Shown here: piece by piece, positions 9,000 to 48,338 of the stretch
Numbering within the stretch: the first letter of the stretch is position 1
Layout: every line of letters begins with the position of its first letter
Source: a virus
Lineage: Duplodnaviria; Heunggongvirae; Uroviricota; Caudoviricetes
Length of the DNA: 64,000 nucleotides
Virus record (IMG/VR): IMGVR_UViG_3300047472_000248
Span: 52,315 to 116,314 of that record
Strand: one strand, 5' to 3'
Program-made: the position numbers and the translations under genes
Notes under the pieces: generated by a model
The model's database searches: none
Told to the model about the DNA's origin: nothing
Seen by the model: the letters and a program-made list of their open reading frames with translations, nothing else

Positions 9000-9008
9000 T
9001 ATCCACAG
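9000..9008. promoter_or_regulatory. DnaA box TTATCCACA
   Basis: perfect consensus 9-mer between the iterons and an AT-rich patch (CCATTTATCAG). Confidence 0.5.
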
Positions 9009-9168
9009 GGGCGTAGTCCAACGGTGGCAAAGTTGTCCCGGTTATAGAGGGATTACCATTTATCAGCGGGTCACGGTTGCACTAGGCCGCCGTCACCGTT
9101 GCGCCGTCGCTCGCGCGAAACGGTCACCCTTGCGCCGTGCCTGCATTCTGCCGGGCGTCACGCTTGAA

Positions 9169-9507: not shown

Positions 9508-10163
9508 GCGGCCTCCTTCGCGGTCTCGAACATCTCTTTGTAGAGCCGGCGCATCTCGAACATCGCCTTCTCGTCGCCCTTCCCTTGCTCGGTCACCGCC
9601 AGGCCGTCGCGTGCGGCCCGCCTGAAGGCGACGCGATCGCGCAGCACGGCATCGGCCAGCTGCACGTTCGTCAGGTCGCCCACGACCTCGCGCATGTCGT
9701 CCGCATCGGTCATGGTCGCGTGGGTCGGGGCGCAGTTCACGACCACGTAGGCGCGCAACTTCTGGTTGAAGGTCTGGACGTCGCCCACCACCCGATCGAT
9801 CGCGGCCAGGCCGTGGATGTCGAACTGGCTCGGCCGCGCCGGGATGAGCATCACCTGGGCGACGAGCATGGCCTGGCGCAGCTCGATCGAATCACGGCCG
9901 CCGGCGTCGATGACCACGTCGTCGTAGCGTGGCGAGAGCTTGCGCAGCTCCTCGGTGACGCCCTTCCCTTTCAGCTGGATGCAGCTGATCTTCGGCTCGA
10001 CGCCCTCCTCCGTTCGGATCTCCGCCCATGAGGTGGCGCTCTGTTGCGTGTCGGTGTCGACCAGCAGCACGTCGCGCCCCGCAGCCGCCCGGATGGCCGC
10101 CAGGTTCGTCGCGATCGTCGTCTTGCCAGTGCCGCCCTTCTCTCCGCCAACGAGGACTATCAT
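9504..10163 (-). CDS. parA: ParA/ParF-family partition ATPase
   Basis: deviant Walker A GGEKGGTGKTT; DTD motif; 219 aa, small type-Ib ParA. Confidence 0.8.
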   Translation of the reverse strand: MIVLVGGEKGGTGKTTIATNLAAIRAAAGRDVLLVDTDTQQSATSWAEIRTEEGVEPKISCIQLKGKGVTEELRKLSPRYDDVVIDAGGRDSIELRQAMLVAQVMLIPARPSQFDIHGLAAIDRVVGDVQTFNQKLRAYVVVNCAPTHATMTDADDMREVVGDLTNVQLADAVLRDRVAFRRAARDGLAVTEQGKGDEKAMFEMRRLYKEMFETAKEAA

Positions 10164-10169
10164 GCTCTC

Positions 10170-10410
10170 TCCTATGCTAGGGTATCAAAGCAGATGCCAG
10201 TGCCCCATGGGCTAGGCGATCGCAGGCGATGCCAGCATAGGACAGCGTGGTGTAGGAGAGGATAGCACCCCCTTCCCTGCCCTCGGCTAGGGTTTGCGAT
10301 GCTAGGCTATGCCACCAGACCGATGCATAGCATATGAGAGGGGAGGGTAGGCGACCCTATGCGATGAGCCCGCATGCCACCATAGGCTAGGCTATCGCAG
10401 GCTATGCGAG
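10170..10410. repeat. centromere-like array of short CTAGG / TATGC / GCATAG repeats (candidate parC and par promoter)
   Basis: about 12 degenerate hexamer copies in alternating orientation directly upstream of parA. Confidence 0.5.
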
Positions 10411-10414
10411 GGGC

Positions 10415-10447
10415 ATAAAAAAGGCGCCCACGAGGGGCGCCACTGAG
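10415..10447 (-). terminator. intrinsic terminator downstream of the HTH regulator gene
   Basis: GGCGCCCCTCGTGGGCGCC hairpin followed by TTTTTTAT on the minus strand. Confidence 0.55.
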
Positions 10448-10467
10448 GGGAAGGGGTGGCCTGGAGC

Positions 10468-10977
10468 CTAAGCTGCCTTGCGATGCGACGTGCCCAGCGT
10501 GCGCGCCACTGCAGCATGTGCTGCCTTGCGCTGATCGCGGAGCTTTCGCAGAACAGGGATGAGCGCCTCGACAAAGGCAGGCTCCGCGGCCAGGTCGATG
10601 TCCATGTCCTGCAGCTCGTGGTTCACCAGACGCAGCAGGTTCGCATCCTTCTGCGAGACCATCCGGGTCGTCATGATTTCCTCCAAGGTCTTGTAAGTCT
10701 CGGGGGTGTATTCCTTCATGACCAGGCGAAAGAGATAGACGGGATCGCCGTCGATGGCCTTGCACAGCGCGGCAATCTTGTTGATCGGCAGCTTCATCTC
10801 GCCGGTCTCGATCATCGTCATGATGTTGCCGGTGGCATAGCCGAGCGTGGACGCGACTTCCCTGCGCGTCTTACCGCTGGCATCCATCAGTCGCGCGATG
10901 TAGTCGGAGACGGCGCCCTTGTATCCCCGCTCGCGCTCCTTGACTACCTCCGTCGATCCCTTCTTTTGCGTGGCCAT
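10468..10977 (-). CDS. HTH (XRE-family) transcriptional regulator, candidate repressor
   Basis: helix-turn-helix REVASTLGYATGNIMTMIETGEMKLPINKIAAL; divergent from early operon. Confidence 0.6.
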   Translation of the reverse strand: MATQKKGSTEVVKERERGYKGAVSDYIARLMDASGKTRREVASTLGYATGNIMTMIETGEMKLPINKIAALCKAIDGDPVYLFRLVMKEYTPETYKTLEEIMTTRMVSQKDANLLRLVNHELQDMDIDLAAEPAFVEALIPVLRKLRDQRKAAHAAVARTLGTSHRKAA

Positions 10978-11268: not shown

Positions 11269-11451
11269 ATGGCCGGCCAACTAAACGGAAAAGAAGTCAC
11301 GAGTGACGAGTTTGTTCGAGTCATGCAGTCAGCTGAGTCTGTAACACGCCTCGATATGGGGCTCGGCGACATCTACATCCTGAGGTTCAAAGCTGGCGAT
11401 CGTGCCGCGATCGCGATGGACGGGCGCTACGCCCTGGTCGACATCGGCTGA
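11269..11451 (+). CDS. first gene of rightward operon (60 aa)
   Basis: ATG 12 nt after RBS TAGGAGA; promoter-proximal position. Confidence 0.35.
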   Translation: MAGQLNGKEVTSDEFVRVMQSAESVTRLDMGLGDIYILRFKAGDRAAIAMDGRYALVDIG

Positions 11452-11536
11452 CGCATCGGCTGCTGTTGCAGCCCCGCCCCGAATCCGAGGGGCAATTTTT
11501 AGAGTTCGTTCATTGCAGCGAACGAAGGGGAGCGCG

Positions 11537-13762
11537 ATGCGCAAGGACATCATGGTGGTTCGGGAGTCGATCGGAAAGATCGTCACGCTCCTGACGGATC
11601 GCAAGATCAACGTAACACAGCGTGGCACCGACGCATACGTGCGCTACGCTCCGGACGGTCAGGTTCTCCAGCTCAACGTCCCCTACCTGCCCGATGATGC
11701 CGACGATACGCTGATCGCGGCGATCCAGGGCTTTCTGGATCATGAAGTCGGTCACGTTCTGCACACCGACCACAAGGTCGTGGTGTCGGCCGCGAAGCAG
11801 GGCACGCGCATCAAGAAGATGGCCAACCTCGTCGAGGACGTCTACGTCGAGAAGATGATGGCCAAGACATTCCCGGGCAGCGAGTCGAACCTCGAGCGCC
11901 TGCGTGAAGTCTTCCTGAACCGGATGATCAAGCCCGAGCTCGACAAGGCGATCGCCGCGGGCGACACGACCTTCGCGTCTGGCTCGCTGATGATCGTGCA
12001 GTTCCGGGCGTGGGGCGGGCAGCGCGCGTGCGCTGACTTTCTGAAGGCGAAGGCTGCCGTCTACGACCCGCTGCTGGCAGACCTGCGCGACGCCCTGGGC
12101 GCCGACATCGCCGAGCAGCTCGGGCAGACCCGCAGCAGCGCCGACTGCCTGCACCTGGCCAAGCGGGTGATCGCCCGGATCGAACAGTGGGAGGAAGACC
12201 GCAAGAAGAAGGAGATGGAGCGCCGCCGCAAAGAGCGCGAGGCAGCCAAGAAGGAAGAGGAGGAAAAAGAGCCACCGCCGCCGCCCAAGGACGACCCCCG
12301 CGAGGAGTCTGAAGAGCAGCCGCCCAAGGAAGGGGAGGGCGAAGAAGAGCCTCCAGAGGAGGCCGAACCGGGCGAGGGTGGCGAGGGCGAGCCGGCACCC
12401 GAAGAGGGCAGCTCGGAAGAGGAGGGCGAGCCCGCCCCGGGCGACGACGAGGGTGAAGAGCCTGCCCCCAGCGAAGAGCCCACGGAAGAGGGCGCACCGC
12501 CACCCGAACTGAAGCCGTCGGGTGAGGAGTCCGCCGGCGAACCCGAGCCCGGGGAAGAGCCTGAAGAAGATGAGGGTGCCGGCATGGGCGCCAGCGAACC
12601 CGAGCCGACCCCTGAACCCGGGGAGAGCAGTGCGGGCGCTGAGGAGGAGGGTGAGGAGGGTGAGGAGGGCACAGCACCGTCTGAAGAGCCGGCATCGGCG
12701 GCCGCCGAAGAGGGTGGGGAGGAAGAAGAGGAGGAAGACCTCGGTCCCGAGCCGGAACCGTCGTCGCTGCTGCCGGCGCTGGACGAAGCCGAGGGGACCG
12801 ACTTCAGCAAGGATCTGGCCAAGATTCTGGGCGAGGATTCCCGAGAGACTATGGTCAAGTCGGACTACTGCATCTTCTCCACCGAGTGGGACAAGGTCGA
12901 GATCTTCGAGCCGCCCGGCGCGGTGCCCGACCGCCAGGTCACCGACCTGGTGGAGACCACGACGTCGATGGTGGGCGTCATGGCCAAGAACCTCGAGCGC
13001 GCGATCGCCGCGATGACCAAGGTCGCCTGGAACCCCGGGCTGCGCCGCGGCCGCATCAACCCGTCCGCCCTGGCCAAGTCGGGCGTGGGCGACGATCGTC
13101 TCTTCCGCAAGCGCTACGAGCACCGGGCGAAGGACACGGCGGCGACCCTGCTGATCGACTGCTCCGGGTCGATGCAGGGCCCGAAGATGCGCACCGCTGC
13201 GCTGGCGGGCTACGCGCTGTCGATGGTGCTGGAGCGCCTTCGTGTGCCGCACGAGGTGGTGGGGTTCACGACGAGGATCTCCACCGAGATGGAGGCGGCA
13301 CTCGACCGTGAGCGTCGCAGTCACGGACGCTCCGTGAACTATTCGCGGGACGAGTCGCTCTACATGCCGATCTTCAAGGAATTCCACGAGCGGGTGACGG
13401 CAGTCGTCACGCGCCGTATGGCTTACCTGGTCCCTGGCTACCCCGAGGGCGTGATGCGGAACAACGTCGACGGCGAGAGCGTGCAGATCGCTGCGCATCG
13501 CCTGCGCCAGCAGCGTGCCAGTCGGCACGTCCTGATGGTGCTGTCGGATGGGCGGCCGGCCTGCTCGCCAGGCTATGGGCTGAACGAGCACCTGCAGAAG
13601 GTCGTTCGGAACGTCGAAGCGAGCGGCATCGATGTCATCGGCATCGGCATCGGCACCTCGGTCGTCGAGCAGTTCTATCCACGCAACGTCGTGGTCGACG
13701 ACATCAAGGAACTGCCGCAGGTCGTCATCAGCCAACTCGGAAAGTTGCTCTTGGCTGTGTGA
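11537..13762 (+). CDS. CobT-like von Willebrand factor A protein with long acidic E/P/G-rich linker
   Basis: C-terminal MIDAS LLIDCSGSM; ~250-aa low-complexity poly-E/P region; RBS AAGGGGAG; 11402 is the ORF-track start, 11537 is the preferred ATG. Confidence 0.6.
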   Translation: MRKDIMVVRESIGKIVTLLTDRKINVTQRGTDAYVRYAPDGQVLQLNVPYLPDDADDTLIAAIQGFLDHEVGHVLHTDHKVVVSAAKQGTRIKKMANLVEDVYVEKMMAKTFPGSESNLERLREVFLNRMIKPELDKAIAAGDTTFASGSLMIVQFRAWGGQRACADFLKAKAAVYDPLLADLRDALGADIAEQLGQTRSSADCLHLAKRVIARIEQWEEDRKKKEMERRRKEREAAKKEEEEKEPPPPPKDDPREESEEQPPKEGEGEEEPPEEAEPGEGGEGEPAPEEGSSEEEGEPAPGDDEGEEPAPSEEPTEEGAPPPELKPSGEESAGEPEPGEEPEEDEGAGMGASEPEPTPEPGESSAGAEEEGEEGEEGTAPSEEPASAAAEEGGEEEEEEDLGPEPEPSSLLPALDEAEGTDFSKDLAKILGEDSRETMVKSDYCIFSTEWDKVEIFEPPGAVPDRQVTDLVETTTSMVGVMAKNLERAIAAMTKVAWNPGLRRGRINPSALAKSGVGDDRLFRKRYEHRAKDTAATLLIDCSGSMQGPKMRTAALAGYALSMVLERLRVPHEVVGFTTRISTEMEAALDRERRSHGRSVNYSRDESLYMPIFKEFHERVTAVVTRRMAYLVPGYPEGVMRNNVDGESVQIAAHRLRQQRASRHVLMVLSDGRPACSPGYGLNEHLQKVVRNVEASGIDVIGIGIGTSVVEQFYPRNVVVDDIKELPQVVISQLGKLLLAV

Positions 13763-13789
13763 GATTTTTCTCGCTCGCCCGTTGCGATA

Positions 13790-13811
13790 AGTCAGCCCTG
13801 ACTGTATGATT
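13790..13811 (+). promoter_or_regulatory. AGTCAGCCCTGACT + TGTATGAT
   Basis: between the CobT-like and CobS-like genes. Confidence 0.5.
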
Positions 13812-13877
13812 GCCGAGAACCAGAGCGCATAGTTCGTTCTGTCGCATTTAGCTAAACCTTTTTTGGGGAGCACCTTT

Positions 13878-15086
13878 ATGAGCGAAGTCGCCACCGTCGA
13901 AGAACTCGACACCCGGATCAGCTGCGAAATCTGTGGTGCCAAGTGCCACGGCATTCAGACGCACCTGAAGGATGATCACGCCGACTGGACATTGGCACGC
14001 TACGAGAAGGAGTTCCCCGGCAAGCCGCTGCTCTCCGAGCTGGCCAAGATGAAACTCGCCGAGCACCAGGCCGCAAAGAAGGCTGCCGCAAACCCGGCGT
14101 CGTCATCAGTCAGCACTGACTCGAAGCAGCGCGCTGAGACGAAGTTCTTCCATGAAGTCTTCGGGCTGGGCATGGTGCCGGCGGCGCTCAGCACCCCGTC
14201 GAAGGACGGGAAAAAGAAGGCACGGCCGATCCCGATCACGACGCTGATCAACACGCCGGAATCGCAGCCGATGGTGCCGGCGATCGACCCGAACTACGTC
14301 TTCAACCTCGACGTCCTCAAGAGCGTGATGCTTGCCGCCGAGATGGGCGTCGCGGCCTATCTCTGGGGCCACGCCGGCACGGGGAAGACCTCCCTGTTCG
14401 AGCAGCTGTTCGCGCGGACCAACCGCCCGATGATCCGGGTGCAGCACACCGCCAACATGGAAGAGTCGCACATCGTCGGCCAGTGGGTGCTGCGTGAGGG
14501 CGAGACGGTGTTCGAACTCGGCCCGCTGCCGCTGGCCATGATCAATGGGTGGGTCTACCTCGCCGACGAATACGACTTCGGCCGCCCCGAGGTGCTGTCG
14601 GTCTACCAGGCCGTGCTCGAGGGCAAGGCGCTGGTGATCAAGGAAGCTGACGCGAAGAACCGCGTCATCAAGCCGCACCCGAACTTCCGCTTCGTCGCGA
14701 CGGGCAACACCAACGGCACGGGCGACGAGTCGGGCCTGTATTCGGGCACGAACATCCAGAACGCCGCCAACTACGAGCGCTTCGCCATCGTCGAGCGCAT
14801 GCCCTACATGGAGCCCGAGCTGGAGGCACGCCTCGTGTCGCAGCAGGCCGCCATCGCGATTCTCGACGCGCGCAAGCTGGTCGACTACGCCGGGCGCATC
14901 CGCACCGAGTTCGACAACGGCAAGGTGACCTCGCCGATCTCCCCGCGCTCGCTGATCTACGCCGGGAAGATCGGGATGATCCGCGCCAACTACCGCATCG
15001 GCCTCGAGAAGGCCTACATCAACCGCCTGTCCTCGGTCGACCGAGAGACGGCATTGCAATTCGCCCAGCGCGTTTTCGGAGCTTGA
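13878..15086 (+). CDS. AAA+ ATPase, CobS/MoxR-like
   Basis: Walker A GHAGTGKTS, Walker B-like VYLADEYD; N-terminal Cys/His cluster CEICGAKCHGIQTH. Confidence 0.65.
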   Translation: MSEVATVEELDTRISCEICGAKCHGIQTHLKDDHADWTLARYEKEFPGKPLLSELAKMKLAEHQAAKKAAANPASSSVSTDSKQRAETKFFHEVFGLGMVPAALSTPSKDGKKKARPIPITTLINTPESQPMVPAIDPNYVFNLDVLKSVMLAAEMGVAAYLWGHAGTGKTSLFEQLFARTNRPMIRVQHTANMEESHIVGQWVLREGETVFELGPLPLAMINGWVYLADEYDFGRPEVLSVYQAVLEGKALVIKEADAKNRVIKPHPNFRFVATGNTNGTGDESGLYSGTNIQNAANYERFAIVERMPYMEPELEARLVSQQAAIAILDARKLVDYAGRIRTEFDNGKVTSPISPRSLIYAGKIGMIRANYRIGLEKAYINRLSSVDRETALQFAQRVFGA

Positions 15087-15742
15087 GCATGACGGCAGTA
15101 ACCAAAGAGCAGTTCGCCAACGACGGCAGCTATGAGTCGGTCGAGCGCATGTTGCGCCAGCTGGCGGGCAAGTGCTTCAAGCGCGTGTCGGGCATGGGTC
15201 TTTCGATGGACTTCGATGACTGCATGGGCATCATGAACGTCGGCTATGCCGAGTCCCTGCGCACCTGGGACCCCGAGAAGTCCAAGTTCGCGACGTGGTG
15301 CCAGTTCGTCGGGCTGCAGCACTTCAACCGCGCGATCGCGAAGGAAGAGCGCGAACGTGCCGAGATGGGCATGGTGTCCTTCACCGACATCATGGGCTCG
15401 AGCGAGGAGGGCAGCGACGACTTCACCGAGTTCTTCGCGGCCGCCGAGTCCGATGCAGAAGAGGCGCCCGACGAGCGACGGGCCCGGTTCGAGCTGAACA
15501 TGGAGCGTCTGCGCACGCTGTCGCCGGCGGCCAAGCGCCTGGTCAAGGCGCTGATCGAGTCGGAGATGGCCGTCAGCCGCGAGATCGTCACGCTGCACAG
15601 CCTGACCCAAGCCCTGGGCATGGACCCCAAGACCGTCTCCGGCGTCTGCCGTGAGCTGAAGCACGTCTACAGCCTGACGAACCTGCGTGTGGTCGCGCCG
15701 GCCAGGCCGAAGGGCGAAGCGCAGGAGCAGACCGCGGCGTGA
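15083..15742 (+). CDS. sigma-70-family-like RNA polymerase sigma factor
   Basis: region-2-like FATWCQFVGLQHFNRAIAKEER (cf. FxTYAxWWIRQAIxRAI); C-terminal HTH-like region 4. Confidence 0.45.
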   Translation: MSMTAVTKEQFANDGSYESVERMLRQLAGKCFKRVSGMGLSMDFDDCMGIMNVGYAESLRTWDPEKSKFATWCQFVGLQHFNRAIAKEERERAEMGMVSFTDIMGSSEEGSDDFTEFFAAAESDAEEAPDERRARFELNMERLRTLSPAAKRLVKALIESEMAVSREIVTLHSLTQALGMDPKTVSGVCRELKHVYSLTNLRVVAPARPKGEAQEQTAA

Positions 15743-16329: not shown

Positions 16330-16575
16330 ATGTCAGAAGTCACGATCACCATGCCCAAGGAACTCACGGGCGAAATGCTGCGCGCGGTGCGTGAGCATCC
16401 ACTCACGAAGGTCGAAGACCGCGACGAGATGAACCTGCGCATCGGCTGGCTGATCTGCGCCTGGGACGTGCTCGCGGAGCACCGCCGGCCGCCACCCGTG
16501 CCGTATCGACCGCCACAGCCGACCCCACTGGGGGCGATTCCCAACGATCCGAGAGTGAAGTGGTCCTGGAAATGA
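16330..16575 (+). CDS. hypothetical protein
   Basis: 81 aa; RBS AGAGACTGCCCCT; ATGA overlap with dnaE start. Confidence 0.45.
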   Translation: MSEVTITMPKELTGEMLRAVREHPLTKVEDRDEMNLRIGWLICAWDVLAEHRRPPPVPYRPPQPTPLGAIPNDPRVKWSWK

Positions 16576-19500
16576 ACCCCCTTCAGATCGCCCCATCGAT
16601 TCGCTCCGACTTCTCGATCGGCGAATCCTCTGCGCAGATCCCGAAGCTGGTCGACCGCGCGAAGGAGCTGGGCTACAAGGCGCTCGCGCTCGTGGACACC
16701 ATGAGCGTCTCGTCGATGCCCAAGTTCGCCAGCGCGTGCAAGAAGGCCGAGATCAAGCCCATCGTTGGCTGCACCGTCCGGGTCGTCAACGATCCCGCCG
16801 AGCGGGTGAAGGACCGCGAGAATGGCGGCTACCGCCTGAAGGTCTACGTCAAGACCGAGCGGGGCCTGCAGTCGCTCTACCGGTTGCTGACGACGGCGCT
16901 CCAGCCCGACCACTTCTACTATCACAGCCGCTGCTCGCTCGACGAGGTCCTGCAGCTCGAGGACGTGATCGTCACCACGGGCGACATGCACAACCTCTGG
17001 CACCGGCAGGACGCGGCCGCGATCGACAGCCACCTGATTCACCGCTTTGGGAACGACTACGGGGTGGAGCTGGTCGCGCTGAAGACGCCACTCTTCGACC
17101 GCCTGAACCGCACCGCCTGGGAAGTGGCACAGTCTCAAAGCCGCAACATCATCGTCACCCGGCCGGTCTTCTACCTCACGCCGGAGGATGCCGACAGCAC
17201 CGACGTGCTGCGGGCGATCTCGTCCAACACGTCGGTCGACAGCATCTTCCTCCCGCAGCCCTACGTGCGCGACATGGCGCTGCTCGACCCCAAGGACTAC
17301 CTGAAGCACCTGCAGGCGCTCGACGAGACGCTGGGCGCCAAGGTGGCAAGCCGCGGGCTGCACCACGTCAAGGGCATCGCCGACAACTGCACCTACGAAT
17401 TCAAGAAGCTCCCACCCTCCATGCCCAAGATGGCAGAGGACGAGTTCGTCACTCTCTGCGGCATCGTGCGCGACGGCTGGACCGAACGCTTCTCGAAGAC
17501 CGTCTGGGGCCACGCGCCGGCGCCCGCCGAGCTGCAGGTCTACAAGGACCGCCTCAGCTTCGAGCTGAGCGTCCTGAAGAAGATGGGCTTCAGCGGCTAC
17601 TTCCTGCTGGTGCACGACATCGTCCAGTGGTCGAAGGACAACGGCATCCGCGTGGGCCCCGGGCGGGGCTCCGCCGGCGGCAGTCTGGTCGCCTACCTCA
17701 TGGGGATCACTGACCTCGACCCCGTGCGCTTCGACCTCCTGTTCGAGCGCTTCATCAATCCCGACCGGATCGACTTGCCCGACGCCGACCTCGACTTCAT
17801 GTCCGGGCGCCGGCACGAGGTGATCGAATACATCACCAACAAGTGGGGCAAGGATCACGTCGCGGGCATCGTCAACTTCTCCACCCTGGGCGCTGCGTCT
17901 GCGCTGCGCGACAGCGCGCGCCTGCACGGCCTGAAGCCCTACGAGTATTCGTGCTCGAAGCAGATGGAGAAGGAGCACGGGGTCGCGCTCAGCCTCGAGA
18001 AGTCCGCCGAGCTGGTGCCCGACATCGAGAAATTCAAGCTGGACCGCCCGGTGATATGGAACCACGCGGTGCGCATCGAGGGCGCCAACCGCAACCTCTC
18101 GCAGCACGCCGCGGGCGTGGTCGTCGCCGGCGAGCCGATCGTCAACCGGGCGGTGGTCTCCACCCAGCCGGGGCACGCGGTCATCCAGTGGGACAAGAGC
18201 CAGGTCGAAGAGTTCGGCCTGATCAAGATGGACATCTTGGGCCTGACGACGCTCGACGTGATCGATGCGATCCTCACCTACGTGAAGGAGCGCCATCACA
18301 AGACGATCGACACGCTGCGGCTGCCGCTCGACGACGACAAGACCCTGAAGGCATTCGCCAAGGGCGACACCGTGGGGGTGTTCCAGTTCACGGGGTCGGG
18401 CATGCGCAAGCTGCTCAAAGAGATGGCGATGGGCGGGCCGCTGACGTTCGACGATGCGTGCGCTGCCACCGCGCTGTTCCGGCCGGGCCCGCTCGACGCC
18501 GGCCTGTGTGACCGCTACGTTCAGGTGAAGCAGGGAGCCGCGACGCCCTACTACGAGCACCCCGCGCTCGAGGAGTGCCTCAGCGACACCTTCGGCGTGA
18601 TCGTCTACCAGGAGCAGGTCATGAAGATCTGCCGGGTGCTCTGCGGGTTTACCCCGGGTGAAGCCGACGGTGTGCGCAAGGCCATCGGGAAGAAAGACCC
18701 GGTGAAGATGGCCGAATACGGGGAGCAGTTCGTCGCCGGCGCCGTCAAGGCAGGCATGGACAGCTTCCGCGCCGAGGCGCTTTGGGAGCAGATTCTGGGC
18801 TTCGCGGGCTACGCCTTCAACAAGTCGCACAGCTACGCCTACACGCTGCTCAGCTACACCACCATGTGGCTGAAGGTGAACTACCCGCTGGAGTTCTTCG
18901 CGGGCTCGCTGTCGGTGGTCGACGACTCGGACGCCCAGGCGATCCTGATCGCCGACGCGCAGAGCAGGGGCATCCGTGTGCTGCCGCCCGACGTGAACTA
19001 CAGCAGCGCGCGCATCGAGATCAAGGGCGAGGACGAACTCTACGCGCCGCTGCAGGCCGTCAAGGGCATCAGCAGCAACGTCGCCGCGTCGATCCTGAAG
19101 CTGCGCGAGGCCACCTCGGAGCACGTCCACGTCGGGCCGCCCGTGGTCAGAACGAAATCCCCGCTGACGATGACGGACTTCGATCCGGCGCGCCAGAAGG
19201 AGATTTTGGGGCGGGTCAAGGTCAACGCCGCGCACCGCGCTGCGCTCGATAAGGTGGGCGGGTTCTTCTCGATCACCGGTGGCGTGCCCCCGACGCACCC
19301 TGACCGCTTGCGCGACCGACTGGCACTCATGCCCGGGTTCACCGTCGAGACGGTGAAGGCCGATCGGAAGCTCACCGTCGAGCACCTGGCCAAGATCAAG
19401 ATCACCCGCCTGGTGGAAGAGGCGCGGACCTGCGAGGGCTGCTCGTTCAAGGGCAAGACGCACCCCGTGGTCCGCATGGGCGACGCGCCGAAGTTCATGC

Positions 19501-19961
19501 TGGTCTTCGACACCCCGAGCTACCAGGACGACCGGGCGGGCAAACTGCTCGCAGAGGGGAGCGACGAGCGCCCGGGCAACTACGAGGTCGTGCGCGCCGC
19601 GCTGAAGGGCATTGGGCTTCGGGTCGGCGACGGCTACTACACCGCGCTGGTGAAGGCCGCGAAGAACAAGGGCCAGAAGGAGCTGACGAACGAGCAGATC
19701 AACGGGTGCAGCAAGTTCCTGATGGAGGAGATTGCGATCCTGAAGCCGCCCGTCATCGTCGCCATGGGGAGCAATGCGGTGCGCTTCTTCGCGCCGGGTA
19801 TCAAGGGCTCGCCGGCTGACCTCGCCGGCAAGGCCATCTATCGCAGCGATCTGGACGCAACCGTCATCTTCGGCATCAACCCGGCGTCGCTGTTCTTCGA
19901 CCCGAGCAAAGAGGCGCTGATCGTTGCGGCATTCGACAAACTGGGCGAGCTTTTGAGCTGA
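16572..19961 (+). CDS. dnaE: DNA polymerase III alpha (DnaE-type) with C-terminal family-4-UDG-like domain
   Basis: PHP domain; [17 protein letters not shown]...[26 protein letters not shown]...DLDF polymerase core; C-terminal CEGCSF...FDTPS...[21 protein letters not shown]...GINPAS parallels UDG family 4 with GEAPG replaced. Confidence 0.85.
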   Translation: [1129 protein letters not shown]

Positions 19962-35823: not shown

Positions 35824-36663
35824 ATGAAAAGACTCTTCTCCCTGTTCCTGATCGCGTCGTTCGCGCTGCTTGCGGGCTGCACCCGCATCGACAGCGGCAA
35901 CATCGGCATCGACAACACCCTCGGCCAGGTCAAGAGCGAAACGCTCAGCTCCGGCTACTACAGCACGGTCTTCAAGAACGTCCTCGAGATCAGCGGCAAG
36001 CAGACGCACATCGCCTTCGACGGGCTCAAGCCCAAGTCGAAGGACAACATCACGATGGACGACTTCGACGCCGACATCTACTACTCGATCAACTCGTCCG
36101 ACGCCCCCAAGATCCTGACACGCTTCGCCGGTGACATGCAGGCACAGCACGTGCCGGACGGCCAGCACGACGACGGCTCGATGCTGATCGGCAGCAACTT
36201 CGTCAAGCGAATGGCGCGCAGCGCGATCTTCGACGTGGCACAGGGGCACAACGCGGCCGACATGAACGCAGCCCGCAACGACATCGAGAAGGCGATCGCA
36301 ACGCAGCTGCAGGCAATGCTCGACGAGCACGCCGGCAAGGGGTGGTTCAAGGACGTCAACGTCACCGTGCGCAGCATCGTCCCGGACCGCAACCTGCAGG
36401 AACAGATGCGCCTGAACGCCGACCGCACCTTCAAGCTGGCCGCCAAACAGAAGGAGATCGAGCTTGCCAATGCCGAAGCGCAGCGCCTGGCAGCCGAAGC
36501 CCAGGGCGTCGCGAAGGCCAACGAGATCATCAGCGCGTCGCTGACGCCGCAGCTGCTCCGCATGCGTGAGATCGAGACGCAGGCCAAGTTTGCCAGCGCG
36601 GGCACCCACACCGTGATCATGGGCGGCAGTGGCGCAGTCCCGCTCGTCCAGGTCAGCAAGTAA
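35824..36663 (+). CDS. SPFH/band-7 family lipoprotein
   Basis: signal peptide with lipobox LLAGC; SPFH core plus coiled-coil AEAQRLAAEAQGVAKANEII. Confidence 0.6.
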   Translation: MKRLFSLFLIASFALLAGCTRIDSGNIGIDNTLGQVKSETLSSGYYSTVFKNVLEISGKQTHIAFDGLKPKSKDNITMDDFDADIYYSINSSDAPKILTRFAGDMQAQHVPDGQHDDGSMLIGSNFVKRMARSAIFDVAQGHNAADMNAARNDIEKAIATQLQAMLDEHAGKGWFKDVNVTVRSIVPDRNLQEQMRLNADRTFKLAAKQKEIELANAEAQRLAAEAQGVAKANEIISASLTPQLLRMREIETQAKFASAGTHTVIMGGSGAVPLVQVSK

Positions 36664-43692: not shown

Positions 43693-43725
43693 CCCATCGC
43701 GAGCGGTTCGCGATTGGGGACAAAG

Positions 43726-44061
43726 ATGAACATCGAACGCCTGAAATTCGCTGTCGCCCGGGGTGCCCGGGTGCAGATCAGAACGGGGGCCGAACCGGAG
43801 TGGCGTGACCACCCGTCGGGCTACCTGGGCTACCGGCACGCCGACTATCGCGTGCACCCGGACGACGCAGCGCTCGAATACGGGCCGCTATCTGCAGCGC
43901 TGAAACATCGGATCGTGTGGTCCGAGTGGACTGAAGGCGCCGCTGCCGCTTTGATATTCGCGCGGCACCTTGGATTCGAACAGGTGCACTACGCGAGCGA
44001 CGCCGAGCATCTTCACTACTGGGACTTCGTCGCCGAATACCTGGCGGACCAAGGACTATGA
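43726..44061 (+). CDS. hypothetical protein
   Basis: 111 aa (alternative start 43714). Confidence 0.4.
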   Translation: MNIERLKFAVARGARVQIRTGAEPEWRDHPSGYLGYRHADYRVHPDDAALEYGPLSAALKHRIVWSEWTEGAAAALIFARHLGFEQVHYASDAEHLHYWDFVAEYLADQGL

Positions 44062-44627
44062 GCACACCGATCTACTACTTCCCGAGCTTCCTGGCCACCG
44101 ACGCGACCTACGTGTTCGATCGGCTGTGGGCTGATCTGGACTGGGTCCGCGCCGAGGGCTCGAACCGTCGCGAATACTACGTTGCACGCGCGGGCATCGG
44201 TGCCTACACCTACGGGCGCGGCGCCGGCCGCCGCACCTACGAACCGCAGTTCGCGCACATCCTGATCAGGTCGGTCTGGAACATGGTCGAGACCATGACC
44301 GGCGTCAAGTTCGACGTGTGTTTCCTGAACGGCTACGAGAACGAGCGTGACGCCCTCGGCTGGCATGCCGACGACTCGCCCGAGATGGACGACGCGCGCC
44401 CGATCGCGATCGTCAGTCTGGGCGCCGAGCGGGAGATCATGTTCCGTCCGAAGGGCACCGACCAGGCGCGCCAGAACCTGCTGCGCGAGACGTTGATGCT
44501 GCAGAACGGCAGCCTGTGCCTGATGGCTTCCGGCATGCAGGACACGCACGAGCACAAGATTCCCAAGGCGGGCAGGGCGGTGGGCCCGCGCATCTCGTTC
44601 ACCTTTCGAGGCTACGTGAAGCAATGA
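44058..44627 (+). CDS. alkB: AlkB-like 2OG-Fe(II) dioxygenase (nucleic-acid demethylase)
   Basis: HxD as GWHADD, second His in HEHKIP, RISFTFR (RxSxTxR) 2OG-binding. Confidence 0.65.
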   Translation: MSTPIYYFPSFLATDATYVFDRLWADLDWVRAEGSNRREYYVARAGIGAYTYGRGAGRRTYEPQFAHILIRSVWNMVETMTGVKFDVCFLNGYENERDALGWHADDSPEMDDARPIAIVSLGAEREIMFRPKGTDQARQNLLRETLMLQNGSLCLMASGMQDTHEHKIPKAGRAVGPRISFTFRGYVKQ

Positions 44628-44821
44628 AGCGCTACGCACTCTTCGCAGGCGACCACTACTACCCGAGCGGAGGTTGGCACGACTTCGCAGGGTTCTTCGA
44701 CTCGCCCGGGCAAGCGAAGGCCCGTGCCTCCAAGCTGCCCCGAGAGCCATGGGAACGTGCGGACGACAAATGGTGGCACATCGTCGATCTTCAAACGGGC
44801 GAAATCATCGAGAAGGACTGA
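44624..44821 (+). CDS. hypothetical small protein
   Basis: 65 aa. Confidence 0.35.
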   Translation: MKRYALFAGDHYYPSGGWHDFAGFFDSPGQAKARASKLPREPWERADDKWWHIVDLQTGEIIEKD

Positions 44822-44822
44822 T

Positions 44823-46073
44823 ATGCAAGTGATCAAGGAAGAAGGCTCGCGCCCGATCAAGGCGTGGGTGGGCACGAAGAACAGCGGCAGCTTCAATTGG
44901 GAAGAGCCGTCGCTGGTGCCCGACATCGAAGACTCGGCGATGCAGCAGCTGAAGAAGCTGGCCAAGATGCCCTTCATCGCGCCCAACGGCGTCGCGGTGA
45001 TGCCCGACGTCCACGCCGGCATCGGCTCGACCGTGGGCAGCGTCATCGCGACCGACAAGGCCATCATCCCCGCGGCGGTTGGGGTCGACATCGGGTGCGG
45101 GATGAACGCGGTGCGCCTGTCGCTGAAGGCGAGCGACCTGCCCGACTCGCTGCTGGCCGTCCGCCACCAGATCGAGCGCGACGTGCCGATGGGCAATAGC
45201 TCACACACCCGCGCTGAGGATGTGGACGCGAACCGCCGGCGCCTGCCGATCGCCGACGACGTCAGGGGGCGTATGGCTGTCAGCTCTGCGGTCGGCGGCT
45301 GGTATCAGGCTGAGAGCAAGGCGGCGTCGCAGCTCGGCACGCTCGGCAGCGGCAACCACTTCATCGAGCTGTGCCTCGACGAGAATCAGAACGTCTGGAT
45401 CATGCTGCACTCGGGCTCGCGCGGCATCGGCAACATGATCGGCCGGCACTACATCGCCAAGGCCAAGCGGTCGATGGAGCAATTCTTCATCAAACTGCCC
45501 GACGGCGACCTGGCCTACTTCCCCGAGGACACCGACGACTTCGAGGACTACACCCGGGCCGTCCAGTGGGCGCAGGACTACGCGCTCGAGAACCGGAAGG
45601 TGATGATGACCGCGGTGATCGCGGCGCTGCGCCTGCACATCCCCGTGCCGTTCGAGGTCACGACCGAAGCGATCAACTGCCACCACAACTACGTCGAGAA
45701 AGAGAACCACTTCGGCCGCAACCTGTGGGTGACCCGCAAGGGTGCCATTCGGGCGCGTGAGGGCGACCTGGGCATCATCCCTGGCTCGATGGGACAGCAG
45801 AGCTACATCGTGCGTGGCAAGGGCAATCCCGAGTCCTACTGCAGCTGCTCGCACGGCGCCGGCCGCGTCATGTCGCGCACCGAGGCCAAGCGCCGCTTCA
45901 GCCTGCAGGACCTGGTGGCGCAGACCGAGGGCGTCGAATGCCGGAAGGACGCCGATGTGATCGACGAGATCCCGGGCGCTTACAAGCGGCTCGACGTCGT
46001 CATGGAGAACCAGAAGGACCTGGTCGAAGTCGTCCACACGCTCCGCGCGGTCCTTTGCTGCAAGGGCTCGTGA
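44823..46073 (+). CDS. rtcB: RtcB RNA 3'-phosphate/5'-OH ligase
   Basis: MPDVHAGIGSTVG, GVDIGCGM, GSGNHFIELC signature motifs. Confidence 0.8.
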   Translation: MQVIKEEGSRPIKAWVGTKNSGSFNWEEPSLVPDIEDSAMQQLKKLAKMPFIAPNGVAVMPDVHAGIGSTVGSVIATDKAIIPAAVGVDIGCGMNAVRLSLKASDLPDSLLAVRHQIERDVPMGNSSHTRAEDVDANRRRLPIADDVRGRMAVSSAVGGWYQAESKAASQLGTLGSGNHFIELCLDENQNVWIMLHSGSRGIGNMIGRHYIAKAKRSMEQFFIKLPDGDLAYFPEDTDDFEDYTRAVQWAQDYALENRKVMMTAVIAALRLHIPVPFEVTTEAINCHHNYVEKENHFGRNLWVTRKGAIRAREGDLGIIPGSMGQQSYIVRGKGNPESYCSCSHGAGRVMSRTEAKRRFSLQDLVAQTEGVECRKDADVIDEIPGAYKRLDVVMENQKDLVEVVHTLRAVLCCKGS

Positions 46074-46333
46074 TGAAGCCGATCTACGAACACTGGGGGA
46101 CGCCCGAGGGGCGCGAGGGCATTCAGCGCACCCTCGTAGAGGAAGATCCCGACGACGCGCTGTTCGCTGCTGTGGGTATCCGAGAGGTCGACGAGCGCGG
46201 CAACGTGCGCACGCTGACCGTCGAGGAGCTGAACGCCCGCGGCGTGCGTCGTAGCGTCGCGGCAAAGAACATCACCACGGGCGAGATGAAGCCAAGTCGC
46301 TCCGGGCCATTCTTCATCGTCAAGGGGTCGTGA
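46070..46333 (+). CDS. hypothetical protein
   Basis: 87 aa; overlapping stop/start. Confidence 0.4.
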   Translation: MMKPIYEHWGTPEGREGIQRTLVEEDPDDALFAAVGIREVDERGNVRTLTVEELNARGVRRSVAAKNITTGEMKPSRSGPFFIVKGS

Positions 46334-46644
46334 TGAAGTTCTCCGAGATTGTTCGGCGCTTCTGCGCGTTCAGAGAGTGGATGGAGCCGACGGATGACGG
46401 CACGGTCTACTGCCTACCGGAGGCTTCGCTCGAAGACCTGGACGACCAGATCGAAGTGTGCACGCTGTGGCAAGACGCCGCGCGCTACCGCCACCTGCGT
46501 GAGCACGGCCGCTGCGACTCGAAGCATGGCCACGGCCTGGTGCTTGGCGGTCGGGACAAGGCGAGCATGGCATTCCGCTACTGGGGCACGCCCGAAGAGC
46601 TGGACCGCTCGGTCGACGCCGACATGGCCGTCAGGAGCCAATAG
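46330..46644 (+). CDS. hypothetical protein
   Basis: 104 aa. Confidence 0.4.
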   Translation: MMKFSEIVRRFCAFREWMEPTDDGTVYCLPEASLEDLDDQIEVCTLWQDAARYRHLREHGRCDSKHGHGLVLGGRDKASMAFRYWGTPEELDRSVDADMAVRSQ

Positions 46645-47015
46645 TGAAAGATCCGATCATCTACCGCTCTTGGCCGCGTGACACGATCTCCGAAGCGATC
46701 AGTGAGTTCAACCACCACATGCACGATGGTGCCGGGATCGAGGAGATCGAGGCGGGCCTGCACGGGCTGGACTTTTTAACCCGCGCGTCAGAGCTTGGCA
46801 GCGACCTGGAGGCCCGTCTCGACGGAGCCGTCACAGAGGGGCGCATGCGGATCACGCTGATGCTTGAGCAACTGGACCAGCAGGAGAAGGTGCAGCGCGC
46901 GATCACGGCGCTGAAGCACCTACAGGTGACCATTCGGGGTATTCAGCGCCGCATCGAGTGTCCGCCCGATGCAGAGGAGTATCTCGCGCAGCGACGGATG
47001 GGAGCCGTCCTATGA
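46644..47015 (+). CDS. hypothetical protein
   Basis: 123 aa; GTG start. Confidence 0.4.
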   Translation: MKDPIIYRSWPRDTISEAISEFNHHMHDGAGIEEIEAGLHGLDFLTRASELGSDLEARLDGAVTEGRMRITLMLEQLDQQEKVQRAITALKHLQVTIRGIQRRIECPPDAEEYLAQRRMGAVL

Positions 47016-47170
47016 CGAGCCACAAAGAGATGCTGGCCTGGCACCGCGCCACCATTCGCAAGACGCTGAAGGAGCTGGCCAAGCTCTGCCCGGGCGCGTT
47101 CGATGCGGAGGGTAACCCGAAGCCCGCGACAGCCTACCCACGTCCAAAGCGCACAGTCAATACTGACTGA
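47012..47170 (+). CDS. hypothetical small protein
   Basis: 52 aa; ATGA overlap. Confidence 0.3.
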   Translation: MTSHKEMLAWHRATIRKTLKELAKLCPGAFDAEGNPKPATAYPRPKRTVNTD

Positions 47171-47200
47171 CATCGAAATCAGCCCAACGCAAACACCACC

Positions 47201-47557
47201 ATGGATGCAGTCAAAATCACCCCCGAAGTAGCCGCTGACTGGCGCTCCTGGGTCGCCGTCGCAAAGGCGGCGCGGGAAACGCCGGCAATGCAGCTGCACG
47301 TGTCGGTCCAGACGATCTCGGTCGTCAACGCGATCCTCTCGCAGCAGGACAAAATGCTGCACAACATGCAGGCGATCTGCCAGGTGGCCACCAAGCGCCA
47401 CAACGAGATTGCCGCGCAGTTCCAGGCACTTGCCGATGCCGTGCGTCGCATGCACGACGTAGAGGACACCTACGGGTGCGGCTTCTCCGAAGCTGCCGCT
47501 TGGAACGATGCCAACAACGAAGCCCGCCGCCTGGCCGGCATGAAGGGCCGCACATGA
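47201..47557 (+). CDS. hypothetical protein
   Basis: 118 aa. Confidence 0.45.
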   Translation: MDAVKITPEVAADWRSWVAVAKAARETPAMQLHVSVQTISVVNAILSQQDKMLHNMQAICQVATKRHNEIAAQFQALADAVRRMHDVEDTYGCGFSEAAAWNDANNEARRLAGMKGRT

Positions 47558-48204
47558 GCCAGCCCTTCTTCACCTCCGACCTGCACGCCTGGCACCGCAG
47601 CCGGGCGGAGTTCCGCGGCTTCTCGACCATGGAAGCGATGAACGAGGCGATCATCGCCGACTGGAACCGCGTCGTGCGGCCGGTCGACGAGGTCTACCTG
47701 CTCGGTGACGTGTGCTTTGCCGGCACGACCAAGACGCTCGACTTCCTGGACCAGCTGAACGGTCGCATCCACCTGGTGCGCGGCAACCACGACAAGGGCA
47801 TGAGCGGCCAGGTCCTGCAGCGCTTCGAGTCGGTGGACAAGATGATGTCCATCAAGGTGCCTGTGGCGCGTGGCGATGGCATCAACACCGTCTACCGCAT
47901 CGAGCTGTGCCACTTCCCGATGCTGTCGTGGGACCTGGCGCACTACGGTGCCTGGCACCTGCACGGGCACTCGCACGGCAACTGCAAATACCCGCACGAG
48001 AACGCCCGGATGATGGACGTCGGGATCGACACGCAGACGCCCTATGTGCCGCTGCGTGGGGAAGCGCCGAACTGGCAGGGGCGCTTTCGCCCCTACTCAT
48101 TCCAAGAGGTGCGCGACATCATGCTCGCTCGTGAAAACTGGTCGCCCGATCATCGGGTGCGCAGTGAAGACGAATCGCGAGAGTTTCTCAGGGAGGCTGT
48201 ATGA
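47554..48204 (+). CDS. calcineurin-like metallophosphoesterase
   Basis: SDLHAW, LLGDV, GNHD, HGHSH motifs. Confidence 0.65.
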   Translation: MSQPFFTSDLHAWHRSRAEFRGFSTMEAMNEAIIADWNRVVRPVDEVYLLGDVCFAGTTKTLDFLDQLNGRIHLVRGNHDKGMSGQVLQRFESVDKMMSIKVPVARGDGINTVYRIELCHFPMLSWDLAHYGAWHLHGHSHGNCKYPHENARMMDVGIDTQTPYVPLRGEAPNWQGRFRPYSFQEVRDIMLARENWSPDHRVRSEDESREFLREAV

Positions 48205-48338
48205 CACCGCAAGAAAAACGCCTTACGGCGTTCATGAACCGCATCTCGATGGTGACGCTGGCCGACGTGCTGCGCATCTTCGGCGCGGGGCTCGCGTTCG
48301 GGATCGCGCTCGGCTTGAAGTTTGGGGCGCACGCTTGA
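48201..48338 (+). CDS. tiny membrane protein (45 aa)
   Basis: RBS GGGAGG 8 nt upstream; ATGA overlap; hydrophobic C-terminus; below ORF-track cutoff. Confidence 0.3.
   Translation: MTPQEKRLTAFMNRISMVTLADVLRIFGAGLAFGIALGLKFGAHA

Follow-up and report, generated by a model that had tools for sequence, protein, structure and literature searches.

Within the window, by which we mean the whole 64-kb stretch of DNA that was analysed, genes for an AlkB-family dioxygenase, an RtcB RNA ligase and a calcineurin-like metallophosphoesterase (MPE) lie on one strand in a chain of 11 genes that overlap or almost touch, with spacings of -4 to +30 nt at the junctions from orf115 to orf45. The cluster proper runs from 44058, the start codon of AlkB, to 48204, the final base of the MPE stop codon; from its sequence it is read as co-directional and translationally coupled, with operon-like packing. 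The phage that carries it is approximately 116 kb in size with a GC content of 65%. The genes of the chain are as follows.

43714..44061, + strand: orf115, opens the overlapping chain; 4-nt overlap of its stop with the AlkB start; high GC3
44058..44627, + strand: AlkB-family Fe(II)/2-oxoglutarate dioxygenase of an ALKBH2/3-like clade, 189 aa
44624..44821, + strand: orf65, small protein, Phage_T4_Y07C family (PF26894)
44823..46073, + strand: RtcB RNA ligase (3'-phosphate/2',3'-cyclic-phosphate to 5'-OH), 416 aa
46073..46333, + strand: orf86, hypothetical; 1 nt common to the RtcB stop and the orf86 start
46330..46644, + strand: orf104, hypothetical
46644..47015, + strand: orf123, hypothetical
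47012..47170, + strand: orf52, hypothetical
47201..47557, + strand: orf118, hypothetical; 4-nt overlap of its stop with the MPE start
47554..48204, + strand: calcineurin-like metallophosphoesterase (MPE), aq_1665-like / phrog_547 family, 216 aa
48201..48338, + strand: orf45, small hydrophobic protein, closes the overlapping chain

Tight gene packing is the norm throughout the window. Pfam and PHROG scans returned no match for orf115, nor, when searched directly, for orf65, whose family call is a precomputed Pfam match on an identical gene in Logan contig L124; the first 4 nt of orf65 overlap the AlkB stop, and a single nucleotide separates its end from the RtcB start. Homologs of orf86 were absent from the other loci compared. 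No promoter-like site was found at the cluster and no terminator-like site of note within it, while the 64 kb contain no tRNA gene, no Rfam match, and neither a polynucleotide kinase nor an ATP-dependent RNA ligase.

Identity of the three enzymes

The initial annotation had placed AlkB, RtcB and a calcineurin-like phosphoesterase here, among what it took to be small early genes, and proposed profile searches; Pfam and PHROG matches far beyond chance were obtained for all three, each gene is intact, and the catalytic residues of the signature motifs are kept in every case. RtcB matches its Pfam model at 6e-127 across positions 1-426 of 426 and retains all motifs of the Pyrococcus horikoshii enzyme, namely D62 (MPDVH), C92 (DIGCG), N178/H179 (GSGNHF), H196, H288 and the nucleophile H344 (SHGAGR). 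Its identity is 62-74% to 80 phage RtcBs from IMG/VR and 69% to that of Bordetella phage PHB04, and it scores under the NCBIfam cut-offs of RtcB2-type models. The mechanically called reading frame begins at GTG 44724; the true start is likely to be ATG 44823, because this codon lies 1 nt past the upstream stop and homolog alignments begin at residues 1-3.

AlkB matches Pfam 2OG-FeII_Oxy_2 (E 8e-18) and phrog_21963, 'alkylated DNA repair' (3e-65), and residues H103-x-D105, H166 and R178/R184 are unchanged in 15 aligned homologs. Of the proteins with solved structures, human ALKBH3 matches the single sequence best (full-length match, 3e-19), and the family profile likewise finds ALKBH3 and ALKBH2 as its closest solved relatives (E 2e-28 and 1e-27). 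These comparisons indicate an ALKBH2/3-like clade that is mostly phage-borne. E. coli AlkB was not detected by the family profile even at E 0.1, and the window protein is not its equivalog, scoring 21 bits on TIGR00568, for which the cut-off is 231. ALKBH3 acts preferentially on single-stranded DNA and RNA and is able to demethylate tRNA. The window protein shares its Fe(II)/2OG triad and 2OG-binding arginines with human ALKBH3/ALKBH2 and plant-virus AlkB domains, although the phage form is a minimal, stand-alone protein of ~180-190 aa encoded by dsDNA phages. AlkB enzymes, including the viral domains, repair RNA methylation damage (PMC2553587).

MPE passes the gathering cut-off of Pfam Metallophos (1.4e-5) and matches phrog_547 at 2e-52. 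All five metallophosphoesterase motifs are kept in the family alignment (D9/H11, D52, N78/H79, H120, H139/H141) and the family profile matches 1XM7 over its full length (E 2e-20). The family was found in 1,487 phage records, a far wider spread than that of RtcB; Vibrio and Escherichia, its main host genera, do not appear among the ten genera on the RtcB list, while Pseudomonas, Mycobacterium, Bacillus and Enterococcus are common to both lists.

Genomic neighbourhoods of AlkB and RtcB

Among approximately 130 sampled AlkB, RtcB and MPE loci, the complete trio occurs in this window only. AlkB was near RtcB at 0/80 RtcB loci and MPE at 1/80, and RtcB was near AlkB at one of 34 AlkB loci; the full combination is not conserved as an operon or module. 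An independent AlkB/RtcB pair, 2.2 kb apart, is present at locus L006. AlkB and RtcB alternate in one genomic slot among relatives of the window phage, the gene after AAA_28 in syntenic relatives being either AlkB (L103, L105) or RtcB (L097, L037, L061, L073, L030).

It is unlikely, but deserves weight, that the three are unrelated accessory genes brought together by chance in a highly variable stretch of the replication arm. RtcB alone would then repair RNA, MPE would have another job, and AlkB would mend alkylated phage single-stranded DNA or replication intermediates, or reset DNA methyl marks, the role to which phage AlkB has been assigned in preference to RNA repair (Iyer et al. 2021, PMC7824862). 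Besides that suggestion and the lack of conservation of the trio, such an explanation is favoured by the surroundings of AlkB, which comprise a DnaQ exonuclease, DnaE, SSB, RecA, SbcCD and ThyX; by five relatives in which AlkB lies near the DnaQ exonuclease and AAA_28 without RtcB; by source records, which label AlkB alkylated DNA repair; and by the packing, which is tight window-wide anyway. A role for AlkB on single-stranded DNA is indeed equally compatible with the local context, since this is a DNA replication/repair arm with a DnaQ-like exonuclease 1 kb from the gene.

Chance association leaves unexplained, however, what accompanies AlkB elsewhere. Genes for RNA-repair enzymes lie near 12 of the 34 AlkB loci and one of 80 controls (p = 1e-6, only indicative, since the controls were not size-matched and loci share ancestry). 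Among these neighbours, RNA_ligase, PTH2, CCA-adding enzyme, HAD_SAK_2 and Thg1 were verified with Pfam. AlkB has five different kinds of RNA-repair enzyme beside it in ~12 lineages; RtcB, Pth2, CCA-adding enzyme and Thg1 have previously been interpreted as phage RNA repair (PMC7824862). The clade also adjoins RtcB and Pnkp/Hen1-type genes, with a kinase, Hen1 and a PNKP-ligase protein close behind AlkB in phages XacN1 and RAS14. About 15 AlkB loci have no RNA-related neighbour, among them those of Cr30, CcrColossus and a prophage of Piscinibacter.

A tRNA gene was found within 10 kb of AlkB at 16/34 IMG/VR viral loci, within 1.5 kb at 12/34 and within 500 nt at 7/34, all on the same strand; the corresponding counts for control dCMP-deaminase loci were 12/80, 3/80 and 0/80 (Fisher p = 2e-5 for 1.5 kb, again only indicative, the controls being unmatched for genome size and the loci not phylogenetically independent). 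The density is 0.2-0.55 tRNAs per kb in the interval that starts 9 kb upstream of AlkB and stops 2 kb downstream of it, and ~0.04 thereafter. Half of the ten AlkB loci in GTDB bacterial assemblies lie inside arrays of 14-45 tRNAs, and in Piscinibacter MQ-18 AlkB is the sole credible ORF of a 27-tRNA array, with a tRNA no more than 30 nt away on either side. Suppressor-like tRNAs occur near AlkB at L006 and L224. We found no paper reporting an association of AlkB with tRNA arrays. Coincidence accounts neither for these arrays nor for the slot shared by AlkB and RtcB, and the affinity of the single AlkB sequence to ALKBH3 also counts against it.

The same arrays bear on another possibility, which we consider distinctly improbable: that AlkB edits tRNA modifications, removing or oxidising a methyl mark that host or phage tRNAs normally carry, so as to retune decoding or to hide tRNAs from modification-dependent anticodon nucleases, with RtcB acting in parallel. 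AlkB is co-oriented with tRNAs and tens of nucleotides from them, which implies co-transcription with the arrays; the eukaryotic ALKBH1, ALKBH3 and ALKBH8 are editors of tRNA modifications and provide a precedent; and the suppressor-like tRNAs would fit. Yet nothing was found that separates editing from repair, the 64-kb window of this phage lacks tRNA genes, and the genes adjoining AlkB elsewhere encode enzymes of repair (ligases, CCA-adding enzyme, Thg1, Pth2) rather than of modification.

The metallophosphoesterase and RNA ligases

The MPE family turns up repeatedly beside RNA ligases, which belong to three unrelated families. MPE, Rnl1 and an AAA_33 kinase are adjacent in phi92; in PAK_P2, MPE lies 0.9 kb from Rnl1, with a kinase; RtcB, NADAR, Rnl and MPE all fall inside 5.4 kb in Listeria phage LMTA-34; AlkB, MPE and Rnl genes overlap at L116 and L118; and RtcB is followed by MPE at L098. 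At three of seven further MPE loci (L208, L209, L212) tRNA genes are no more than 1 kb away.

These associations argue against a somewhat unlikely alternative, in which MPE is merely a neighbour of RtcB and, instead of acting on RNA ends, degrades the nucleotides of host immune signalling (cyclic nucleotides or oligonucleotides, 2',3'-cNMPs) or is a protein phosphatase or single-stranded DNA nuclease. The P-loop kinase of phi92 and PAK_P2 weighs further against it, the heal-and-seal set being thereby reconstituted. The alternative draws on the prediction that phage calcineurin-like phosphodiesterases counter nucleotide signals (PMC7824862), on the much commoner occurrence of the family than of RtcB, and on its nearest solved relatives, which are aq_1665 (of unknown function), the glycerophosphodiesterase GpdQ and the ssDNA 'Nuclease MPE', with no match to the Pnkp phosphatase in the PDB. 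In its favour, too, RtcB requires no healing of ends. Cooperation between the two is biochemically unclear because RtcB needs a 3'-phosphate on its substrate, and a 3'-phosphatase would strip that end group.

A probable RNA-repair kit and its known counterparts

Because each family adjoins tRNA genes or RNA-repair enzymes in other phages, the cluster is probably a kit for repairing damaged tRNA or RNA during infection. It is about as likely as not that it constitutes, in one coupled chain, an accessory damage-repair island for RNA, mainly tRNA, of a lytic-type phage. The common RNA-repair theme of the initial annotation is borne out by the neighbours (tRNAs, RNA-repair enzymes, RNA ligases and the shared slot); it finds no support in conservation of the trio or in tRNA genes of the window.

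The T4 enzymes Pnkp and Rnl1 restore cleaved host tRNA and so defeat the suicidal PrrC anticodon-nuclease defence. The logic proposed for the cluster, phage-encoded repair of cleaved host tRNA, is identical, and relatives of the window MPE adjoin Rnl1 and a P-loop kinase (phi92, PAK_P2); the window differs in lacking the kinase and the ATP-dependent ligase and in having RtcB, which seals 3'-phosphate and 5'-OH ends directly so that healing is unnecessary, while T4 has no counterpart of AlkB. The bacterial Rtc (RtcR-RtcA-RtcB) and RtcB2-PrfH systems share the ligase family and its chemistry, but RtcA cyclase, the RtcR regulator and PrfH are all missing from the window, and its RtcB is phage-borne, in a replication arm, and below RtcB2-type cut-offs. 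Bacterial Pnkp-Hen1 is likewise a multi-enzyme RNA repair set with a calcineurin-type phosphoesterase, and a split kinase/Hen1/ligase set stands behind homologous AlkB in XacN1 and RAS14; the window MPE, however, is aq_1665-like, outside the Pnkp/lambda-phosphatase clade, and neither Hen1 nor kinase is present. The cluster also fits the theme of the jumbo-phage repertoire of RtcB, Rnl1/2, CCA-adding enzyme, Thg1, Pth2 and tRNA arrays, viewed as counter-measures to attack on translation (Iyer et al. 2021, PMC7824862), although this phage, at ~116 kb, is not jumbo and its window has no tRNA gene.

[quoted passage not shown] AlkB, with Fe(II) and 2-oxoglutarate, would reverse methylation damage of the 1-methyladenine/3-methylcytosine type in single-stranded nucleic acid, the substrate in this case being most likely tRNA or another RNA, and MPE would process RNA ends as a cyclic phosphodiesterase, a 2'/3'-phosphatase or a trimming nuclease. 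Metal-independent ribonucleases, among them anticodon nucleases, HEPN RNases and endoribonuclease toxins, produce ends of the kind that RtcB joins. We infer the substrates, the cooperation of the three enzymes and the benefit to translation alike. An anti-defence role for the cluster is plausible, in which translation would be kept running against host defences or toxins that target tRNA.

The AlkB-RtcB-phosphoesterase cluster

The cluster is built around three enzyme genes:

44058-44627, + strand: AlkB-like dioxygenase (AlkB), 189 aa
44823-46073, + strand: RtcB ligase, 416 aa
47554-48204, + strand: calcineurin-like metallophosphoesterase (MPE) of the aq_1665-like / phrog_547 family, 216 aa

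The initial annotation had described an RNA repair-like cluster at 44058-48204 with a suggested anti-defence role; the first position is the AlkB start codon and the last is the end of the MPE stop codon, and profile searches and alignments agree with the identities and motifs proposed for all three enzymes, every catalytic residue being kept. AlkB matches Pfam 2OG-FeII_Oxy_2 (8e-18) and phrog_21963 (3e-65); compared with the PDB, the single sequence matches human ALKBH3 over its full length (3e-19) and the family profile matches ALKBH3/2 (E 2e-28), with E. coli AlkB not among the matches of that profile at E <= 0.1. The iron triad H103-x-D105...H166 and the 2OG-binding R178...R184 are invariant across 15 homologs. 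With this HxD...H triad, the RxxxxxR motif and a double-stranded beta-helix core predicted by sequence match, the protein has the features of a Fe(II)/2-oxoglutarate dioxygenase. Membership of the E. coli-type equivalog (TIGR00568) was rejected at 21.4 bits against a cut-off of 231.

RtcB matches Pfam PF01139 across model positions 1-426 of 426 (6e-127), phrog_1075 (3e-148) and the solved RtcB structures (7e-35 to 1e-31). The family's hallmarks are a histidine nucleophile (Pho H404) and a set of metal/GTP-site residues (Pho D95, C98, N202, H203, H234 and H329); in the alignment to 4DWR the protein shows H344 (in SHGAGR) as nucleophile together with D62, C92, N178, H179, H196 and H288. All P. 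horikoshii active-site residues are retained, and GTP/Mn-dependent ligation is predicted. MPE reaches 26 bits with Pfam Metallophos (cut-off 21.5) and matches phrog_547 at 2e-52, while the top PDB match of its family profile is aq_1665 (1XM7), over the full length (2e-20). Its five metal-binding motifs (DxH, GD, GNH[DE], H, GHxH) are unchanged throughout the family alignment: D9/H11, G51-D52, G77-N78-H79-D80, H120 and G138-H139-x-H141. A Pnkp or lambda-phosphatase-type RNA 2',3'-phosphatase was considered and is not supported: in place of the GDxxDRG and GNHE signatures of that clade the protein has LGDVCF and GNHD and no DRG, and no Pnkp or lambda-phosphatase chain occurs among its PDB matches. 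The predicted folds already follow from the full-length sequence matches to solved ALKBH3, RtcB and aq_1665.

Eleven genes, from orf115 (43714), the first of the chain, to orf45 (48338), the last, succeed one another at junctions of -4 to +30 nt, and a scan of 40-52 kb for promoters and terminators found no sigma-70-like promoter and no convincing terminator within the cluster. Because of this spacing and the lack of internal signals, 43714-48338 looks like a single translationally coupled chain, in a window packed in the same way throughout. The small ORFs of the cluster have no Pfam or PHROG match, orf65 excepted, and no homologs in the other fetched loci. A precomputed match on an identical Logan contig places this 65-aa protein, encoded between AlkB and RtcB (44624-44821), in the Phage_T4_Y07C family (PF26894).

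The window has a GC content of 65%, with nearly every gene on the + strand, and carries what profile matches identify as a phage-type replication and nucleotide-metabolism arm, comprising a DnaG-like primase, ATP-dependent DNA ligase, guanylate kinase, CobT/CobS-like proteins, a sigma-70-like protein, DnaE with a C-terminal UDG domain, a gp32-like SSB, a 5'-3' exonuclease, RecA, SbcCD, class II ribonucleotide reductase, an SPFH protein, ThyX, an AAA_28 P-loop protein and a DnaQ-like exonuclease. The nearest cultured phages are distant, DnaE having ~42% identity to Rhizobium RHEph10 and Pseudomonas nickie-type phages. An identical AlkB protein is recorded on a 116,314-bp contig and on a 26.8-kb Logan contig; no record has an identical RtcB product. 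No tRNA genes or ncRNA were found in the 64-kb window. Details of three features of this arm are as follows:

7971-10977, - strand: TrfA replication initiator (PF07042, 6e-39), ParA ATPase and HTH_31 regulator
11402-15742: CobT-like VWA protein and CobS-like AAA_5 ATPase, then directly a sigma-70 region-2 protein
16560-19961: DnaE-type Pol III alpha subunit with a C-terminal uracil-DNA-glycosylase-superfamily domain (PF03167, residues 986-1124)

The first of these is a plasmid-type replication and partition module inside the phage replication arm, and may reflect a phage-plasmid lifestyle.

Distribution of the three genes in other loci

From IMG/VR, 80 RtcB loci and 34 distinct AlkB loci (the latter in two rounds) were obtained with ±10 kb flanks, and conservation was assessed by searching 21+80, later 120, loci with local tBLASTn, the queries being the three enzymes and the products of adjacent genes (L-numbers denote fetched loci, including those of cultured phages and bacterial assemblies). 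AlkB was present in none of the 80 RtcB loci and MPE in one (L098, where it follows RtcB); conversely, RtcB lay near AlkB in one of 34 AlkB loci (L006, an unrelated 141-kb contig, at a distance of 2.2 kb) and MPE in three. A conserved AlkB-RtcB-MPE operon (within ~10 kb) was rejected, no other fetched locus having all three genes. The proposal of an RNA-repair module is supported in part: gene context in other phages supports its theme (AlkB occurs in tRNA arrays and near RNA-repair genes, and MPE adjoins RNA ligases) but not a fixed three-enzyme unit.

No RtcB partner was common to the window and the other RtcB loci, and only SPFH/Band-7 recurred beside RtcB. Nine of 82 RtcB loci had this gene nearby (e.g. 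L026 and L097: SPFH 14373-15203), and in about half of the nine it was directly downstream, with a median gap of 14 nt; the SPFH gene of the window (35824-36663) is 8 kb upstream of RtcB.

Relatives of the window phage have in common the backbone RNR-ThyX-AAA_28-...-SPFH-DnaQ exonuclease. The slot behind AAA_28 holds AlkB in two of them (L103, L105) and RtcB in five (L097, L037, L061, L073, L030), and the order AAA_28-exonuclease-AlkB is found in L112, L113 and L120. In the window both AlkB and RtcB stand behind the exonuclease, and it alone among the compared relatives has both. Alternation of AlkB and RtcB in one slot is expected of interchangeable accessory genes with related roles.

AlkB, tRNA arrays and RNA-repair genes

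A tRNA gene was present within 10 kb of AlkB in 16 of 34 viral loci, within 1.5 kb in 12 and within 500 nt in 7, always on the same strand, compared with 12, 3 and 0 among 80 dCMP-deaminase control loci fetched likewise. For the 1.5 kb distance Fisher's test gives p = 2e-5, a value to be taken as indicative only, given controls unmatched for size and loci that lack independence. Among the 80 RtcB loci, 16 had any tRNA and 5 had one within 1.5 kb. Between 9 kb upstream and 2 kb downstream of AlkB the density was 0.2-0.55 tRNAs per kb, falling to ~0.04 per kb further on; AlkB therefore lies inside tRNA arrays or at their downstream end. The effect extends beyond jumbo contigs, with tRNAs within 1.5 kb in about 8 of 25 AlkB contigs < 200 kb (hand tally).

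A scan of 185,579 bacterial and archaeal species, one genome per species, returned only 10 loci of this AlkB clade. In five of these ten bacterial-assembly loci (L218, L219, L221, L224, L225), AlkB lies within arrays of 14-45 same-strand tRNAs; in Piscinibacter sp. MQ-18 (L218 7218-11930) it is the sole credible ORF in a 4.7-kb array of 27 tRNAs, starting 22 nt past tRNA-Asn and ending 27 nt ahead of tRNA-Ile. Another Piscinibacter homolog is a prophage gene. The clade is thus largely carried by phages or mobile elements. Two side observations concern AlkB loci: that of Achromobacter anxifer (L219) has a second AlkB-like ORF (12319-12933), and suppressor-like tRNAs, with anticodons CTA and TTA, are found near AlkB in two phage-like contigs (L006 7833-7907, L224 7798-7878).

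Genes for RNA repair also accompany AlkB: 12 of the 34 loci have them, compared with 1 of the 80 dCMP-deaminase controls (not size-matched); Pfam-confirmed neighbours are RNA ligase PF09414, PTH2, CCA-adding enzyme, HAD_SAK_2 ('Swiss Army Knife RNA repair') and Thg1. In the cultured jumbo phages XacN1 of Xanthomonas (L121 7608-10682, ORF199-197) and RAS14 of Stenotrophomonas (L229 8022-11239), a P-loop kinase (AAA_33), Hen1 and a PNKP-ligase-domain protein come close behind AlkB and make up a split Pnkp/Hen1-type RNA repair system. XacN1 ORF197 is annotated as 'metallophosphoesterase', and has a Pfam PNKP_ligase match (E 1e-30), a weak DNA_ligase_A_M match and no Metallophos match. In Salicola phage SCTP-2, Pth2 is 3.5 kb from AlkB; no comparable RNA-repair neighbours were found around AlkB of Cr30 and CcrColossus. 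The association of AlkB with tRNA arrays and RNA-repair genes is strong and apparently unreported: our literature search, of incomplete coverage, found no paper tying phage AlkB to either.

Phosphoesterase neighbours and a possible tRNA rescue unit

Further MPE loci were sought with a two-sequence alignment query, which returned 9 loci only, and with a single-protein query, which returned none. The family repeatedly adjoins RNA ligases of three unrelated families. In Escherichia phage phi92 (L217 5998-7888), gp097 (MPE), gp096 (T4 Rnl1-type) and gp095 (AAA_33 kinase) are adjacent, and in Pseudomonas phage PAK_P2 (L215 4992-7832) MPE is 0.9 kb from Rnl1 and an AAA_33 kinase, three small genes standing between MPE and Rnl1; both sets resemble a heal-and-seal RNA repair trio that has gone unannotated. 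Listeria phage LMTA-34 has RtcB, NADAR, Rnl (PF09414) and MPE inside 5.4 kb, near a tRNA, and in L116 and L118 overlapping AlkB-MPE-Rnl genes lie within a tRNA array. Three of seven additional MPE loci have tRNAs within 1 kb.

[quoted passage not shown] Enzymes of the AlkB family act on single-stranded DNA and RNA, where they remove m1A/m3C by oxidation; the substrates of ALKBH3 are ssDNA, RNA and tRNA. Viral AlkB domains repair RNA (PMC2553587). In the proposed mechanism, RtcB would reseal cleaved host tRNA or RNA, AlkB would clear methyl lesions off it, and MPE would process RNA ends, the last being the weakest step. Beside ATP-dependent ligases, MPE could act as the 3'-phosphatase or cyclic phosphodiesterase; a 3'-phosphatase fits those ligases but not RtcB, because RtcB requires a 3'-phosphate, and with RtcB the enzyme might instead perform 2'-phosphate removal or trimming. 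Alternatively, this aq_1665-like protein might have a role unrelated to RNA ends, such as hydrolysis of signalling nucleotides. It is possible, if on balance improbable, that this ALKBH2/3-like AlkB clade is a dedicated tRNA demethylase that moves together with mobile tRNA arrays and with RNA-repair islands of phages, and that in this phage it is coupled to RtcB in a tRNA rescue unit for two kinds of lesion.

The heal-and-seal set consists of kinase, 3'-phosphatase and ATP-dependent RNA ligase; all three activities stand with the MPE family in phi92 and PAK_P2, whereas the scanned ORFs of the window gave no match to RNA_ligase, RNA_lig_T4_1 or a PNK-type kinase. Unlike the Rtc operon (RtcR-RtcA-RtcB), it has RtcB without adjacent RtcA cyclase or RtcR regulator, neither giving a Pfam match in the RtcB neighbours or larger window ORFs (ORFs < ~110 aa elsewhere were only partly covered). 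T4 Pnkp/Rnl1 acting against PrrC is in principle a known phage tRNA-repair counter-defence, and recent work has described many tRNA-cleaving defence systems; the present cluster may bring a benefit of that sort. Our literature search turned up no experimental study of a counter-defence role for phage RtcB or AlkB. Phage RtcB, Rnl, CCA-adding enzyme, Thg1, Pth2 and tRNA arrays have been read as RNA repair and tRNA provisioning, and phage AlkB has been attributed to DNA methyl-mark resetting (PMC7824862). We read the cluster as a putative direct-ligation (RtcB) RNA-repair island to which an AlkB demethylase and a phosphoesterase of aq_1665 type have been added; the phage is mid-sized and shows no tRNA gene in the 64 kb covered.

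The interest lies mainly in the association of AlkB with tRNA arrays and RNA-repair genes, and its position as the lone protein gene in large bacterial and phage tRNA arrays offers a simple experimental handle. If AlkB and MPE belong with phage tRNA repair, phage counter-measures would extend to base demethylation of RNA and include a new end-processing enzyme, a phosphoesterase family of about 1,500 phage genomes would gain a function, and phage 'alkylated DNA repair' genes would be reassigned to RNA. Should this AlkB clade be a dedicated tRNA demethylase, methylation of tRNA bases, by chemical damage or by an undiscovered host defence or toxin, would be damage that phages must reverse, joining anticodon cleavage (ligases), 3'-end loss (CCA-adding enzyme), 5'-end loss (Thg1) and stalled peptidyl-tRNA (Pth2).
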